This document shows positions 17,894 to 24,274 of a DNA stretch of 43,500 nucleotides, piece after piece. The notes under the pieces are model-generated. The model was not told the DNA's origin. It ran no database searches and saw only the letters and a program-made list of their open reading frames with translations. Both the position numbers and the translations under genes were made by a program. The stretch's first letter is position 1. Each line of letters opens with the position of its first letter. Source of the DNA: Deltaproteobacteria bacterium TL4 (GTDB taxonomy: Bacteria > SAR324 > NAC60-12); contig JBBCAX010000306.1 in the NCBI GenBank assembly GCA_051382335.1, positions 1 to 43,500 of the forward strand. Reading direction: 5' to 3'.

Positions 17894-17984
17894 ATCAAAT
17901 CTAAATTAGGGATTGCGTTATTTAAATTAATCCTCTATTTATATGAGAATATAGTCTTGAAAAGGATAGTGGCGAGGAGCATGG

Positions 17985-19421
17985 ATGCCAACACGTAATA
18001 AAAACAACAATATCATTGTCGGACTTGATATTGGTACAACCAAAATATGTGCTATTGCGGCGGATGCGAATAGTCGTGATGTTTTGAATATTGTCGGTGT
18101 AGGGACGGCAAAATCGGAAGGCTTGCGCAAAGGTGTCGTGGTTAATATCGAAAAAACCGTGCAAGCCATCAAGAAAGCCGTCGAAGAATGTGAGTTGATG
18201 TGTGGTCAACAAATCCATTCTGTTTATGCGGGTATTGCGGGACATCACATCAAAGGCCGAAATAGTCACGGGATGGTCACGGTTTATCATAATCGTACTG
18301 TTTCCAAGGAAGATATTCGCCGTGTTATTGATGCCTCTCAGGTATTGATACCCAATGATCGCGAGGTTCTGCACATCTTACCTCAAGAATTCATCGTAGA
18401 CGACCAGGATGGTGTTCAGAATCCTCTGGGGATGTCGGGTGCCCGACTGGAAGTCAATGTTCACATCGTAACGGGCTCTGTCACTTCTGCGCAAAATATC
18501 ATTAAATGTTGTAATCTTGCAGGTTTGGATGTAGAGGACATTGTTCTCGAACCCTTAGCCTCCAGCCAGGCGGTGCTCAGTTCGGATGAGCAGGAAGTAG
18601 GCGTGGTGTTGGTTGATATTGGAGGAGGAACCACCGATATTACCATCTACACGGAAGGAAGTATTGTTCATACGGCTGTGCTTGCTTTGGGGGGAAATCA
18701 TTTAACTCATGATATTGCGATTGGATTACAAACGCCGTTAGCAGAAGCCGAAGAAATCAAGCACAAGTATGGCATCGCCATGCTAGGTAAGCTCAAATTA
18801 TCTTCACGTACCTTCAAAAAGATGACATCCCACCTTCCTGAAGATATCCTCACTCAACTCAAAGTAATCGAAAATAAAGAGTTCAATAAAGAAGAAGACT
18901 TTCTCACAGAAGTCAAGACATTGATCGGAGTCGAACAGACCAATCGTTTTAAAACCTTGTTGCGAAAATACGCAACCATGGACTCGTTGGTTGAAGCTGA
19001 TGAAATGATCCAGGTTCCAAGCGTCGGAGGGCGAAAAGCGCGGACGATTCAGAAGCAAGTGCTGGTTGATATCATTGAAGATCGATTCCGTGAAATTTTT
19101 GAGTTTATTGCACAAGAAATTGAAAAATCCCAGTATCGTAATGTTGTGGCATCCGGTGTCGTGATTACCGGAGGAACCTGTATTATGCCCGGAGCGGATG
19201 AGCTGGCACATGAAGTATTGAAATTGCCTGTACGTGTGGGATTTCCAGAAAACGTCAGTGGATTGCAAGAGCTCATTTATTCGCCAAAGTATGCCACGAG
19301 TGTTGGGCTGGTGCGATATGGACTCAATAATCAAAGTAAAGTTCGGTTTTCAGGAGACGAAACTAATTTATTTCACAAAGTCTCTCGAAGGATGAAAGAC
19401 TGGCTACATGAGTTTTTCTAA
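17985..19421 (+). CDS. ftsA: Cell division protein FtsA with a 66-aa insertion
   Basis: RBS GAGGAG; GLDIGTTK, GLRKGVVV, VDIGGGTTD, GGNHLTHD, VITGG and C-terminal amphipathic helix (RRMKDWLHEFF). Confidence 0.97.
   Translation: MPTRNKNNNIIVGLDIGTTKICAIAADANSRDVLNIVGVGTAKSEGLRKGVVVNIEKTVQAIKKAVEECELMCGQQIHSVYAGIAGHHIKGRNSHGMVTVYHNRTVSKEDIRRVIDASQVLIPNDREVLHILPQEFIVDDQDGVQNPLGMSGARLEVNVHIVTGSVTSAQNIIKCCNLAGLDVEDIVLEPLASSQAVLSSDEQEVGVVLVDIGGGTTDITIYTEGSIVHTAVLALGGNHLTHDIAIGLQTPLAEAEEIKHKYGIAMLGKLKLSSRTFKKMTSHLPEDILTQLKVIENKEFNKEEDFLTEVKTLIGVEQTNRFKTLLRKYATMDSLVEADEMIQVPSVGGRKARTIQKQVLVDIIEDRFREIFEFIAQEIEKSQYRNVVASGVVITGGTCIMPGADELAHEVLKLPVRVGFPENVSGLQELIYSPKYATSVGLVRYGLNNQSKVRFSGDETNLFHKVSRRMKDWLHEFF
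18780..18977 (+). other. In-frame 198-nt insertion in ftsA encoding a helical module
   Basis: Removing it restores YGIA-MDSLVEADEMIQVPSVGGR, ungapped against E. coli HGCA-LGSIVGKDESVEVPSVGGR. CCATG direct repeat at 18778-18782 and 18976-18980. Confidence 0.85.
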
Positions 19422-19502
19422 TACCTGGAAGTCAGTGTCATAGCAGATCATTTTCTGATTAGGCGGAAGAGAATGAAAGTTTTTACCCCTGCGCTTCTCC
19501 GT

Positions 19503-19692
19503 GTTTCCAGGAAGGGACGACAGGGATGTTTTCGTGCGAGGTGCGCGTGACAGGTGTGACTATGGAAGTTCACCGGCAGACCAGGATGGTGTTGTTCTAC
19601 TTGATGTAATGAATGGGGCCCTAAATTTGTAAAGGGAGGATGTCTGTTGTGCTAATCATGGATCTCTTGTTCAAGGGATGGCCTTTCTTTTT
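19503..19692 (+). ncRNA. Putative CsrA/RsmA-binding RNA (sRNA or ftsZ leader)
   Basis: Cluster of GGA motifs, several in stem-loops: GACAGGGATGTT, GGTGTGACTATGGAAGTTCACC, ACCAGGATGGT, TTCCAGGAAGGGA; ends in a weak hairpin plus T-run. Confidence 0.5.
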
Positions 19693-19805
19693 GAAATTGT
19701 GGTTGAGTTCATGAAATCAGAGTAGGAGTTGCGTAGATACAATGATACAGGGGCGTAAATTGGATCATCGCTCATTTTTCAAAAAATAGAGTGGTAGAGG
19801 TAACT

Positions 19806-21473
19806 ATGGTAGGTTTTGCGGAGATTAAGCCCATACAGAGTGATAATCCCGTCATCAAGGTTTTTGGTGTAGGCGGGGGCGGTGGAAATGCAGTCAATCG
19901 CATGATTACCGCTGGAGTTAGAGGTGTAGAATATATTGTTGCGAATACAGATCTCCAGGATTTGAGGAAGTCTCAGGCCTCCAACAAACTTCAGTTGGGC
20001 ACGTTATGCACCAGAGGCTTAGGAGCCGGTGCCAAGCCGGAGGTTGGTAAAAACGCAGCGGAGGAAAGTGTGGACCAGATCAGGGACTACACGCAGGGAG
20101 CGGACATGATTTTTATTACTGCAGGAATGGGTGGCGGCACGGGTACAGGTGGCGCTCCTATTATTGCAAAAATCGCAAGGGAATCCAAAGCCCTTACTGT
20201 TGGAGTGGTCACTCTTCCTTTCCATTTTGAAGGGAAGCAGCGTGCACGTAACGCAAAGGCAGGAATTGAGGCTCTCAAGGCACAGGTTGATACTTTGATT
20301 GTGATTCCTAATAATAACCTTCTCAAGATGGTTGATCCTCGGACTTCGATGATGGAGGCTTTCATTCTTGCCGATGATGTATTACGACAGGGAATTCAAG
20401 GTGTATCAGATCTGATTACTCGTGATGGTATCGTAAACTTGGATTTTGCTGATGTTCGCACTGTTATGGCCAATAAAGGTAAGGCGGTTATGGGGACGGG
20501 GGTTGCTGTTGGTGAGAACCGTGCCAGAAAAGCCGCGGAAAAAGCAATCCATAGTCCTTTGCTTAGTGATTGCAAGATTACGGGGGCTCAAGGCATATTG
20601 ATTAACGTCGTTGGAAGTGAATCCATGACGCTCCATGAAGTTCAAGCGGCCGCGGCATTCATTGAGGAACAAGCTCATGAAGATGCAGATATCATTTGGG
20701 GAGCTTCTGTTAATGCTGAGCTGGGTGATAAAATTTTAATTACGGTGATTGCGACTGGGTTTGATAACTCCGAGGAAGGAGAAGATGACTTCAGTGATTT
20801 TCGAAAGACAGCGGTTCGATCTTCATTTGCGCAGCAACGCATACAACCTGAAACACCGGTATCCCCGCTTTCTTATCAAACGGCCAGTCAACCCACACCA
20901 GTTCCAGCGCAAGGGAGCCCCTTGATGTCTGAAGCCTCTTCAGTTAAAGCTTCGGAGGTCATCCCCTCTTTGCCGCGTCTCAAACCTTCTACCTCAGTAC
21001 ATGTTCCGTTGAGTGCTACTGTGGAGTCCGTTCCTCGTGAACCGTTACAAGCGCCCGCATTTTCTTCTTCTGAACCTCTTAAAGAACAGATCGTGATTGA
21101 TGAAGAACGACCTCGGACTCCTGAATATCTGTCACGTCCTGGGCTCTCTGTTCGACCTGAGTATTCTACAATGCCTAGATATATGGCAAAATCTGAAGCC
21201 TTGGAGACGCCTGAGTATGCTCCACACTCTGAATTTTCGACGAAACCGAGTCCTCATCAGGACTATGCAACGTCATCGCTTCCGCAACAAGAATACGTAC
21301 ATACGGCAGACAGTGTTTTTGAACTGGAAGAGCCCGATATTCTTGAGGAAGTAGAAACTAACCCTAAAATTCCGGAATGGGCTTATGTTCAGCAACGAAT
21401 ACGGCCTGATTTTTGGAATGACTTGGACGTTCCTGCGTTTATTCGCCGACGAAAGAAACAAATGGGACGATAG
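19806..21473 (+). CDS. ftsZ: Cell division protein FtsZ with a long linker
   Basis: ATG 19806 after [47 protein letters not shown] and C-terminal peptide [10 protein letters not shown]. Confidence 0.98.
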
Positions 21474-21682: not shown

Positions 21683-22537
21683 GTGTACTTGAAACTGTCT
21701 CGGTTGTTTTTTACGTTAGTGATTGGTACTGTCGGGGGGATGAGTAGCTGGGCCTTGCTACAGATTTTTTACTTTTTTCACATGCGCCAACCGCTCCCTT
21801 TATTGGATCAGTTTATCTATGAAGGTGTTATGGCAGGCATAGGATTCGGAGCGTATATCAATGCCAACGAAGCCTTACTCAATAGCAATCGTGAAGCCAT
21901 AGTTAAACGCATGTTGTGGGGAACCTGCCTTGGTGGCCTCAGTGGACTGATCAGTTTTACTTGTGCACAAAGTCTGTTAGCTTTCTACACGCCCATCTTG
22001 TGGATCCGTTTGACAGCCTGGACTTTGTTAGGATTATGTATTGGTGGTGTTACAAGCTATCAACTTCCTTTATCAAAACGTTTTTTCTTTCAAATCCTGG
22101 GTGGTGGGATAGGTGGAATTTCTGGTGGTATTCTTTTCGAGTTTTGTCAAAAGATCCCCTATGAATATCTGGGTAATTTTTTTGGTTTAATAGTGTTCGG
22201 TGTGTGTCTATCCCTTGCTATGACCTGTATTGAAACTTTGTTTTCCAAAGCATATTTGCGGGTACTTTGTGGAAATAATGAAGGACAGGTTTACTTACTG
22301 GATAAAGATCAATTTTTAATAGGATACTCCTCTCAAAGCGACATTATGCTATCGGGCTATGCTGAAGTTTGTGACAAACATGCTCGTATTTACCAGCAAA
22401 AGAGTCAATGTATTATGCGTACAGCGCAAGTGGGAGGACAGATATTAATAAATTTTCGTTCAGTGAATCAACAGGTTATGAAAAAGGGAGACATCATCAA
22501 AATTGGTACAGCATTATTACAATACTGTGAGATCTAA
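21683..22537 (+). CDS. Multi-pass membrane protein with C-terminal FHA-like domain
   Basis: About 6 Gly-rich TM segments, then LIG..DI.L...V...HARI and MKKGDIIKIG (FHA pattern); GTG start. Confidence 0.8.
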   Translation: MYLKLSRLFFTLVIGTVGGMSSWALLQIFYFFHMRQPLPLLDQFIYEGVMAGIGFGAYINANEALLNSNREAIVKRMLWGTCLGGLSGLISFTCAQSLLAFYTPILWIRLTAWTLLGLCIGGVTSYQLPLSKRFFFQILGGGIGGISGGILFEFCQKIPYEYLGNFFGLIVFGVCLSLAMTCIETLFSKAYLRVLCGNNEGQVYLLDKDQFLIGYSSQSDIMLSGYAEVCDKHARIYQQKSQCIMRTAQVGGQILINFRSVNQQVMKKGDIIKIGTALLQYCEI

Positions 22538-24274
22538 ATGATGCATCCTATAATTGATAGTATATTACGGCCAAAGTGGGCTTACTTTGGTTTGCAGGTC
22601 TTGGTGTGTAGTCTCAGTTTTTTTTATTCTGAGACGGTGAGGGCACAGGACTTTAAAATTACGGCGGTTGATTCTAATCCTGGTTATATTGGGAGAGAGC
22701 GACATATTTTTTTCAATGTGATTGGAGACCAGAACGAGTATCTCTCGTCTCTTCAGCAAAAAGATGTTTCCCTAAAAGTTAACGGAGAGCCTTTTGCCAA
22801 TTTTCAGGTAGCAGCTCGGAAGCAGCTGTATCATCTGACAACGGCAATTTTAGTTGATTCAACGGCAATTACCCCTCAAGCGCTTGAGCTTGTCAAGGCG
22901 TCGATTAAACCCTATCTGTCGCAGAAACAGGGGCAGGATAGAATTTTATTAAACTCCAATCACCCGACTTCCGCAAGTAAAGAATTTGCTCAAACCATCC
23001 CCGATCTTGATACTCAATTAAGTCTTATCAAGTTCACACCCTCGCCACCTCAAGCTATCGCCAAGTTTATTTTCGATAATGTAAAAATTTTTCCAATTGC
23101 TGATAATCGTCGATGGGTCATTACCATTTCCTCAGCACATGCTTTTACACAAAAATACGATGATCAGGAATGGGAGCCTTTAAAAATCTTTTTAACCACA
23201 CGAAAAATTACCCCGATTCATCTGTTAATCGAAAGTCATGCGTCCCAAAGTTTACTGGACAGCATTACTCAGAAAACGGGGGGTGTCGCGTATACCCTAA
23301 AGGATCTTGAGGAGCTTCCAAAGTTTTTGCAAAAGATTTCAGCGATGCAGCAAAGTGAGTATGTCCTTTCTTATTATCTGAATTTGATTGGCAATAAAAC
23401 GCACGAAGTCGAGTTAAAAATCCAATTTGGAGAGGAGAGTAAGGTCCAGCAGAGTGATGTGACGGTGGTCCCTATTTGGCCACTTTCAGATTCTTCTTTT
23501 CCCTTAAGTGGCAGTTTGATGATTTTGTTTGCGGCCCTGGCGTTCATTGCATGGCAAGTTAGGGACAGGAAATATCTTCTTTTTTCTCATCCTGAGCCTG
23601 GATTTCAAGTTTTGACACCAGGGGAGGAAGATCAATTTATCGCTCTCGAAGCCAAAAATTATACGTTGGACTTTCTCTCTGAGATAAAAACCAAAGGAGG
23701 CCTTAGACTGTCCGCAAATTTAAATAAGGTGACGATGGTTCCACATCAGGGGACTTTTTTGTTGGAAGATAAGAATTACAAAAATGCACTTCTGATTAAT
23801 CGCAGACGAATCCACAGGATCCTTCTTAAAAATGGGGATATTTTAGATATTGGAGAGTTGACGCTGCTGTATCGCAACGAAAATTATCAACCAACCTCAA
23901 TAATAGGCGAGGACGGCAATGCCGATGAGGAACTTACGCCGATACAAAGTAAAAAACTTAAAGGCCCTGTGCGTAAGGACATCCCTGTGTTGATTGCGGA
24001 AAAAAATAAACAAGAAAACTACCTGATTAAAAATATTACTTTCATTGGTAGTTCCAGCATAAACGATATTGTTTTAAAGCACCCACAAGTCGCGTCGAAA
24101 CACGCAAAGATTGTGCGCATCGGAGGACAATATAAAATTCAAACAATGAGTACTCAAGAAGGAACCTTTGTCAACAACCGTCGCATTGAACAGCGATTCT
24201 TACGGGATGGAGACGAAATCTCAATTGGCGAGTACAGTTTCAAGTTTCGTATGGCAAGGACTCCCTCCAAATAG
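22538..24274 (+). CDS. Membrane-anchored protein: periplasmic VWA-like domain, TM helix, two cytoplasmic FHA-like domains
   Basis: Signal-like N-terminus; AILVDS, ITQKTGG and EYVLSY (VWA-like); TM at ~aa 322-340; LKNGDILDIG and HAKI..GTFVNN..LRDGDEISIG. Confidence 0.8.
   Translation: MMHPIIDSILRPKWAYFGLQVLVCSLSFFYSETVRAQDFKITAVDSNPGYIGRERHIFFNVIGDQNEYLSSLQQKDVSLKVNGEPFANFQVAARKQLYHLTTAILVDSTAITPQALELVKASIKPYLSQKQGQDRILLNSNHPTSASKEFAQTIPDLDTQLSLIKFTPSPPQAIAKFIFDNVKIFPIADNRRWVITISSAHAFTQKYDDQEWEPLKIFLTTRKITPIHLLIESHASQSLLDSITQKTGGVAYTLKDLEELPKFLQKISAMQQSEYVLSYYLNLIGNKTHEVELKIQFGEESKVQQSDVTVVPIWPLSDSSFPLSGSLMILFAALAFIAWQVRDRKYLLFSHPEPGFQVLTPGEEDQFIALEAKNYTLDFLSEIKTKGGLRLSANLNKVTMVPHQGTFLLEDKNYKNALLINRRRIHRILLKNGDILDIGELTLLYRNENYQPTSIIGEDGNADEELTPIQSKKLKGPVRKDIPVLIAEKNKQENYLIKNITFIGSSSINDIVLKHPQVASKHAKIVRIGGQYKIQTMSTQEGTFVNNRRIEQRFLRDGDEISIGEYSFKFRMARTPSK

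Follow-up and report, generated by a model that had tools for sequence, protein, structure and literature searches.

Outside the gammaproteobacteria, CsrA is mainly known as a regulator of flagellin that is itself checked by FliW, and the known input of this FliW-type CsrA is flagellin, acting via FliW. A FliW-controlled CsrA is characterized by an adjoining fliW gene, a C-terminal extension and Asn55 (PMC13407953), and CsrB-type RNAs have not been characterized for this type (PMC13407953; PMC7652899). FliW is reported to be anti-correlated with BarA-UvrY, and a joint action of FliW and decoy RNAs in one species was left open by a review of 2020 (PMC7652899). Two described RNAs are especially close to the element considered here. 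RsmW of P. aeruginosa is derived from a 3'-UTR and carries three of its seven GGA motifs in loops (PMC4950607). The flaA mRNA of C. jejuni, which has ANGGA loops in its leader, is repressed by CsrA and also titrates CsrA, in a FliW-containing organism without CsrB-type RNAs (PMC4894983). The sources for the CsrA motifs were the CANGGANG hexaloop (PMC4894983) and A(N)GGAX (PMC4005645). At the ftsA-ftsZ junction of E. coli, an antisense RNA, StfZ, has been described (PMC9628754). Our literature search retrieved no paper on CsrA in SAR324 and no description of ftsA as a CsrA target or of the spacer element discussed below; CLIP supplement tables and most subscription papers were outside this search, and the accessible text of three papers (PMC13443453, PMC9438474, PMC3627812) contained nothing on the spacer element.

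The locus belongs to a SAR324 assembly of 6.59 Mb (43.4% G+C), and the window, that is, the whole stretch of DNA that was analyzed, comprises 43,500 nt of one contig (C306). The ftsA gene (17985-19421, + strand, 478 aa, Pfam FtsA and SHS2_FTSA) is preceded by trkA and a short ORF, not by ftsQ. It is followed by ftsZ (19806-21473, + strand, 555 aa, Pfam Tubulin and FtsZ_C), and the region from the ftsA stop codon (19421) to the ftsZ ATG (19806) forms a spacer of 384 nt (19422-19805, + strand). Among the relatives searched, none of which is of the same genus, the nearest FtsZ cores are 75% identical to that of this genome. The genome has three FtsZ-like genes (on C306, C30 and C121), and at least two are present in most relatives of the family. 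Two FHA-domain membrane proteins adjoin ftsZ downstream (21683-24274, + strand); judged by eye, an FHA-type gene also seems to be located 3' of ftsZ in some relatives. FtsA contains a 66-residue in-frame insertion (residues ~268-332; 18786-18980, + strand) that is missing in the 13 closest relatives shown. The insertion has no Pfam match and has weak relatives at several other loci of the genome (C84, C123 and C104; E values from 1e-4 to 2e-3); a length-limited search matched no other protein, and the ESM Atlas returned nothing above 0.78. This distribution suggests a small module that may insert into proteins.

CsrA, FliW and the start codon of ftsA

The preliminary description had proposed that the spacer is either an operon-derived CsrA sponge or a CsrA-controlled ftsZ leader that links carbon status to division. 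A csrA gene, expected under both proposals, is indeed present in one copy, in the order flgL-csrA-fliW (G000:C367). All genomes checked for csrA contain it (41 of 41), so that finding the gene here is not diagnostic by itself. The encoded CsrA has a C-terminal extension and Asn55, a residue shared by 29 of the 31 CsrA proteins examined, and fliW is found at the csrA locus in 26 of 30 relatives. Thus, all three features of a FliW-controlled CsrA are found in this genome. As csrA lies in flgL-csrA-fliW and encodes Asn55, and is therefore of the FliW/flagellin type, the link to carbon status is unsupported; the input of CsrA is here likely to be flagellin status rather than carbon. Ten flagellin genes are present (on C95, C182, C188, C212, C256 and C396), all of which have a GGA at the Shine-Dalgarno (SD) position, and several of their leaders contain an upstream ANGGA hairpin. 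The sequence TAATCATGGAT is common to two flagellin leaders of C188 and to the spacer (19654-19664).

The start region of ftsA reads GAGGA-GCAUGG-AUG-CC, and thus the start codon lies inside the CsrA consensus CANGG-AUG. The site, G-CA(U)GGAUG-C (17979-17988, + strand), is located right after the SD motif GAGGAG and over the ATG at 17985, and represents a predicted translational operator. In this genome, CANGG|AUG is found at 4 of 1961 starts; the other three genes (C335:6910, − strand; C32:1037, − strand; C437:8538, + strand) are candidate CsrA targets. Counting this genome and only those genomes that have an ftsA start (three loci lacked a start and two gave no match), CANGG precedes the AUG of ftsA in 37 of 38 genomes of the family f1 (11 of 12 genera), compared with 0 of 12 in the sister family f2. 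The sole miss in f1 is a match of 38% identity in one genome (G005). Across the genera, variation at the site is confined to the outer base (in G057) and to the N, which is C instead of U in G012, while the SD motif varies. Positions −6 to −1 of ftsA match at 5.9 of 6 positions across genera; the values for three controls are 2.0 (ftsZ), 1.5 (csrA) and 2.4 (fliW). As the related genomes are not independent, this conservation is to be read as constraint and not as a p-value. The motif is not coding in any frame, because stop codons lie close upstream for each frame in some genomes.

A second CANGGA, with U or G as the N, is located 60-95 nt upstream of ftsA in 26 of 37 f1 genomes (5 of 11 genera), against a background of 14% of the leaders in this genome, in which the second ftsA site is absent. 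Upstream AUGs would be difficult to reconcile with the G and C variants, and a palindromic DNA operator with the invariant GG in the center. The leaders of P. fluorescens hcnA (PMC4005645) and B. subtilis hag (PMC7652899) likewise have a site of the ANGGAX hexaloop type at the ribosome-binding region, and ftsA resembles them further in its second upstream site, present in five genera. It differs from them in being a core division gene and in that the last base of the GGA is also the first base of the start codon. A conserved ANGGAX over the ribosome-binding region, as expected for a CsrA-repressed mRNA, is thus found for ftsA, and the conservation of the site argues that it is very probably a CsrA operator and that CsrA represses ftsA across the family. 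Of the two results of this study, that on the ftsA start is the firmer one; the evidence for the spacer comes from a single genome.

CsrA-type motifs and predicted folds of the spacer

For the motif counts, genes were called crudely as the longest open frames, the intergenic strands served as background, and E. coli CsrB and CsrC served as positive controls. The excess of GGA on the sense strand of the spacer, which had drawn attention to it, was reproduced (13 on the + strand versus 2 on the − strand), the ANGGA motifs at 19633, 19658 and 19674 are present, and ACAGGGATGT (19520-19529) fits the SELEX core, as had been stated; the pattern ACARGGATGT has 39 occurrences genome-wide on both strands. 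Compared with dinucleotide shuffles of the spacer, the number of GGA is not significant (p=0.09) and that of ANGGA is marginal (p=0.03). When CSRNA_FIND (PMC1488887) was emulated for AGGA/ANGGA counts with 5106 uncleaned intergenic strands, the spacer was never above the cut-off. The richest 180-nt window of the spacer has 9 AGGA/ANGGA sites (CsrB 13, CsrC 12) and is tied with three others, of which one is a tandem repeat, one a fragment of a gene and one a coding-like element present in several copies; once the repeat and the two coding-like ties are dropped, the spacer is the top single-copy non-coding strand at this window length. A count of 9 was matched in 72 of 279 shuffled genomes, and the plain GGA-type count is a tail value that lies within genome-wide chance.

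The motif A(N)GGANG, which was picked post hoc among about six motif definitions (as was the 107-nt window used below), occurs 8 times per 180 nt in the spacer; the runner-up among 2984 intergenic strands has 5, CsrB has 8 and CsrC has 4. Among 222 shuffled genomes, one attained this count. Genome-wide, the density is exceeded by only four tandem repeats, and the spacer is the densest non-repeat cluster of this CsrA motif in the genome. NG follows 10 of the 13 GGA of the spacer, compared with 21% in the background. For CA(N)GGANG the spacer is no outlier (3, tied). The spacer is not coding-like (codon score −3.5, versus 17.2 +/- 6.7 for real genes) and contains no tRNA or tmRNA. A repeat or mobile element was also considered and is excluded by the single copy in the genome and the absence of terminal repeats.

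Three of the four hairpins named in the preliminary description are at the positions given there, whereas GAC-AGGGAT-GTT occupies 19519-19530 and had been placed off by one base. In a fold of the whole spacer, only 1-2 of the 13 GGA are in hairpin loops (p>0.5); the corresponding numbers are 9-11 of 22 in CsrB and 3-5 of 14 in CsrC. In the same fold, 19486-19500 pairs with the SELEX-like site. By this fold the spacer ranks 12th among the 2984 strands, with a flagellin leader at the top, and motif-fixed shuffles equaled it in 36 of 200 cases. Folding stability was no greater than that of shuffles (z values of −1.36, −0.22 and +0.81). In 107-nt windows of the 2984 strands, the segment 19494-19600 (+ strand) ranks first, with three stable GGA loops. 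This core module is predicted to form four adjacent hairpins, which hold GGA loops at 19510 (CAGGAAG), 19564 (UAUGGAAG) and 19584 (CAGGAUG) as well as the SELEX-like ACAGGGAUGU (GGA at 19524). The value of three loops holds over window lengths from 90 to 160 nt but is lower than those of CsrB and CsrC (3 versus 3.4-5.8 for CsrB). None of 9 shuffled genomes reached 2.8 GGA loops, 1 of 500 motif-fixed shuffles matched the core module (the ends of which were hand-picked), and the A(N)GGANG count and the GGA loops were jointly reached by 1 of 179 shuffled genomes.

The predicted folds also indicate how the core module is embedded. A 9-bp hairpin of −8.1 kcal/mol (19448-19476, + strand) lies behind the ftsA stop codon and 5' of the module, and a pyrimidine tract (19486-19500, + strand) is predicted to pair with, and mask, the sites 19515 and 19524 in a read-through transcript. 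Opening of site 19524 would cost 3.9-4.2 kcal/mol with the tract and 0.5-1.0 kcal/mol without it. In an RNA starting at 19501-19504, the sites 19510, 19524, 19564, 19584 and 19660 are predicted to open at ≤1 kcal/mol, like most CsrB sites, while the 3' spacer sites need 2.5-8.4 kcal/mol. A long hairpin of −18 kcal/mol (19631-19692, + strand, also delimited as 19631-19690) ends in a U-rich tract; it hides the GGA at 19635, 19638 and 19676, CAUGGAU (19660) stays accessible in its loop, and a processed RNA might end with this hairpin. The weak hairpin with a T-run described earlier at 19673-19692 does exist, at about −3 kcal/mol, but it is not a called terminator, and it competes with the long hairpin. 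A strict scan called neither a promoter nor a terminator in the spacer. The −10-like hexamer TACAAT (19738-19743, + strand, 5/6), which has no recognizable −35 element and is not called by the strict scan, is a weak candidate for an internal ftsZ promoter. Sigma-28 and sigma-54 patterns were absent from the spacer; because they were also absent at the 10 flagellin leaders, these patterns are not valid here. At its 3' end, the spacer contains the ftsZ SD motif GAGGU and its spacing (19797-19805, + strand), a stretch that lacks GGA and is similar to the last part of the 21-nt spacer found in the closest relatives. The ftsZ start region 19791-19812 has a look-alike within the spacer (16 of 22 bases), namely the hairpin with the AUGGA loop (19547-19568), which possibly is a duplication remnant or a mimic.

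Relatives and known Csr/Rsm RNAs

Rfam gave no match in the window, and with the threshold relaxed to E<=10 the spacer was still not matched by CsrB, CsrC, RsmY, PrrB_RsmZ or rsmX; genome-wide searches with the CsrB, PrrB_RsmZ and RsmY models did not list the spacer. A DNA search of 63 genomes of the order (many of them incomplete and none of the same genus) revealed no homologue of the spacer, but only matches of 24-46 nt (E values of 0.002-0.05) in 4 genomes, of which the one in G009 is at another locus. A covariance model built from the single sequence likewise found 0 of 63 genomes. The ftsA-ftsZ spacers of relatives span 21-161 nt in 28 of the 29 loci with both genes, and in further loci (99 of 105) the longest is 298 nt. 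With no homologue found and spacers of only 21-161 nt in relatives, conservation of the GGA loops in the same spacer of relatives, a point on which the preliminary description had made its proposal depend, is not supported. A metagenome search yielded 25 loci, none closer than ~82% FtsA identity, and a 17-mer of the spacer had one match in viral contigs. In the 19 family relatives listed, the regions preceding ftsA and following ftsZ contain no GGA cluster (<=3 per 180 nt). Altogether, the spacer element is confined to this lineage among the genomes searched. The 298-nt spacer, of an uncultured Desulfobacteraceae (L108), contains 11 GGA and 5 A(N)GGANG per 180 nt. In three loci of one genus (g5; L017, L018 and L019), the ftsZ start reads GCAGG|AUG, that is, CAGGAUG over the start codon, and the spacers, which measure 120-161 nt, contain 4-7 GGA.

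With CsrB/CsrC and RsmX/Y/Z, the spacer shares tandem A(N)GGA hairpins, and a ACCAGGAUGGU hairpin is common to CsrB and the spacer; also the A(N)GGANG density per 180 nt equals that of CsrB. However, the spacer has no Rfam match and no terminator, the genome has no UvrY/GacA orthologue, and the element has fewer loops, is unconserved and is not a free-standing gene. Of the criteria of Kulkarni 2006 (PMC1488887), the intergenic location applies to the spacer, whereas a Rho-independent terminator and activation by BarA-UvrY/GacS-GacA do not: the best match to UvrY in the genome has 25% identity and is not an orthologue, and only partial hybrid kinases match BarA. By the criteria tested, the spacer does not belong to the CsrB/Rsm sRNA families. 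In view of the lack of an Rfam match, a called promoter, a called terminator and a UvrY orthologue, a gene of the CsrB/RsmZ type is not supported. The other part of the sponge proposal fared better: a CsrA-binding segment is likely, in view of csrA, the motif outlier and the conserved consensus at ftsA in the same operon.

With RsmW, the spacer would share the binding of Rsm/Csr proteins, the position 3' of a coding gene from which it is separated by neither a terminator nor a clear promoter, and the release by processing (PMC4950607; bioRxiv 10.64898/2026.09.03.749296). RsmW differs in that it was shown by northern, RACE and binding experiments, ends its transcript, and belongs to a gammaproteobacterium with Gac/Rsm (PMC4950607), whereas the spacer, a putative binding segment, lies between two division genes and occurs together with a CsrA of the FliW type. 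The double role of the flaA mRNA in a FliW organism is also the one proposed here, but flaA has two sites in the 5' leader of a very abundant flagellin mRNA (PMC4894983), whereas the putative decoy sites of the spacer follow the gene that would be repressed and belong to an mRNA for cell division.

Possible roles of the spacer

Judging from motifs and folds, the spacer probably binds CsrA to some purpose. The reading we prefer is that of a lineage-specific, mRNA-derived CsrA decoy, similar to RsmW and flaA, which would act by titration and is carried by the same mRNA as the ftsA site; we assign it a probability of roughly 40%. It is somewhat unlikely that the spacer instead reflects chance, that is, an ordinary lineage-specific expansion (an ftsA 3' region plus an ftsZ promoter/leader) on a purine-rich strand, with the ftsA site as the only functional one. 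Gaps of at least 300 nt separate 413 of the 3328 co-directional gene pairs of the genome, the count-only test (72/279), the missing conservation and the lack of excess structure fit this explanation, and with very many genomes screened, 1-in-200 events get flagged. The lead of 3 A(N)GGANG over the next strand (1/222) and the joint result for count and loops (1/179) speak against it, as does the location of the spacer on the one mRNA that has, at the ftsA start, a CsrA consensus of its own that is conserved independently. We regard as doubtful, and less probable than chance, a control in cis, in which CsrA bound to the spacer alters processing, stability or ftsZ read-through and thus sets the FtsA:FtsZ ratio, for example by a shift between the 19631-19690 hairpin and the weak 19673-19692 hairpin with its U-run, or by shielding of RNase sites. 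The predicted sites are located on the ftsA-ftsZ transcript, the GGA at 19635/19638 pair with the U-rich tract in the −18 kcal/mol hairpin and thereby exclude the terminator-like one, and ftsZ is named among the conserved CsrA targets that a modelling preprint predicts for gammaproteobacteria (PMC12889724). However, the cluster stops at least 114 nt before the ftsZ start, the ftsZ SD motif is mostly unpaired and lacks GGA, and the folding energy of the terminator-like hairpin and the opening costs of the 3' sites given above are unfavorable. Classical repression of ftsZ through a CsrA-controlled leader, the second proposal made earlier, does not agree with the sequence, since ftsZ has no GGA over its SD motif or start codon, as a CsrA-repressed mRNA would, and the nearest GGA is 44 nt upstream.

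Two further explanations concern hidden coding information. That the sites serve as operators of small ORFs within the spacer is improbable. A 27-codon ORF (19526-19609) starts with CAGGG|AUG behind an SD motif, the same design as in ftsA, a 21-codon hydrophobic ORF with a GTG start (19649-19714) has a very strong SD motif hidden in the long hairpin, and the anti-SD pairing amounts to −7.0 and −11.5 kcal/mol. Yet GGAUG sites contain an AUG by construction, the frames are not coding-like and have no Pfam match, the 27-aa ORF is found in 0 of 63 relatives, and a 24-aa frame has one weak match, inside a long ORF, among 40 relatives. The view that the spacer arose as a partial copy of ftsA that has since decayed, its GGA stemming from Gly/Asp/Glu codons, is largely refuted and has a minimal probability: a 15-nt exact match to ftsA, the rank of ftsA (6 of 1183 genes) in a comparison with the spacer, a colinear DNA alignment that beats 199 of 200 shuffles and one frame with a score of 42 had pointed to it, but nhmmer with ftsA DNA profiles found nothing at E<=100, the FtsA protein profile scores −3 bits, a value that 22 of 1590 strands equal or surpass, and the codon score is far below that of genes.

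Returning to the decoy, titration is preferred to occlusion because the cluster lies at least 114 nt from the ftsZ start. CsrA would block initiation at the ftsA start codon, and the spacer (~19500-19692) would relieve this repression by binding at least two CsrA dimers, either within the mRNA, as in C. jejuni flaA, or as an excised RNA of ~190 nt, as in RsmW. By analogy with known systems, a cut behind ftsA would release the ~190 nt RNA in the manner of RsmW, and unsecreted flagellin would sequester FliW and raise the level of free CsrA, which would tie ftsA to the flagellar checkpoint. The folds predict that the unprocessed mRNA hides the best site, which would open if the RNA begins at ~19501-19504. 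The most elaborate version, in which FliW-gated CsrA represses ftsA family-wide and a 190-nt sponge is an addition of this lineage, a self-relieving switch with its best site unmasked only by a cut and an RNA antagonist beside FliW, is tentative and rather unlikely in all its parts. If it were true, SAR324 would couple cell division to the flagellar checkpoint. If the spacer binds CsrA, it would be a decoy born within a division operon, and the family-wide CsrA consensus at the ftsA start offers a direct test case for a post-transcriptional coupling of motility and division in SAR324.
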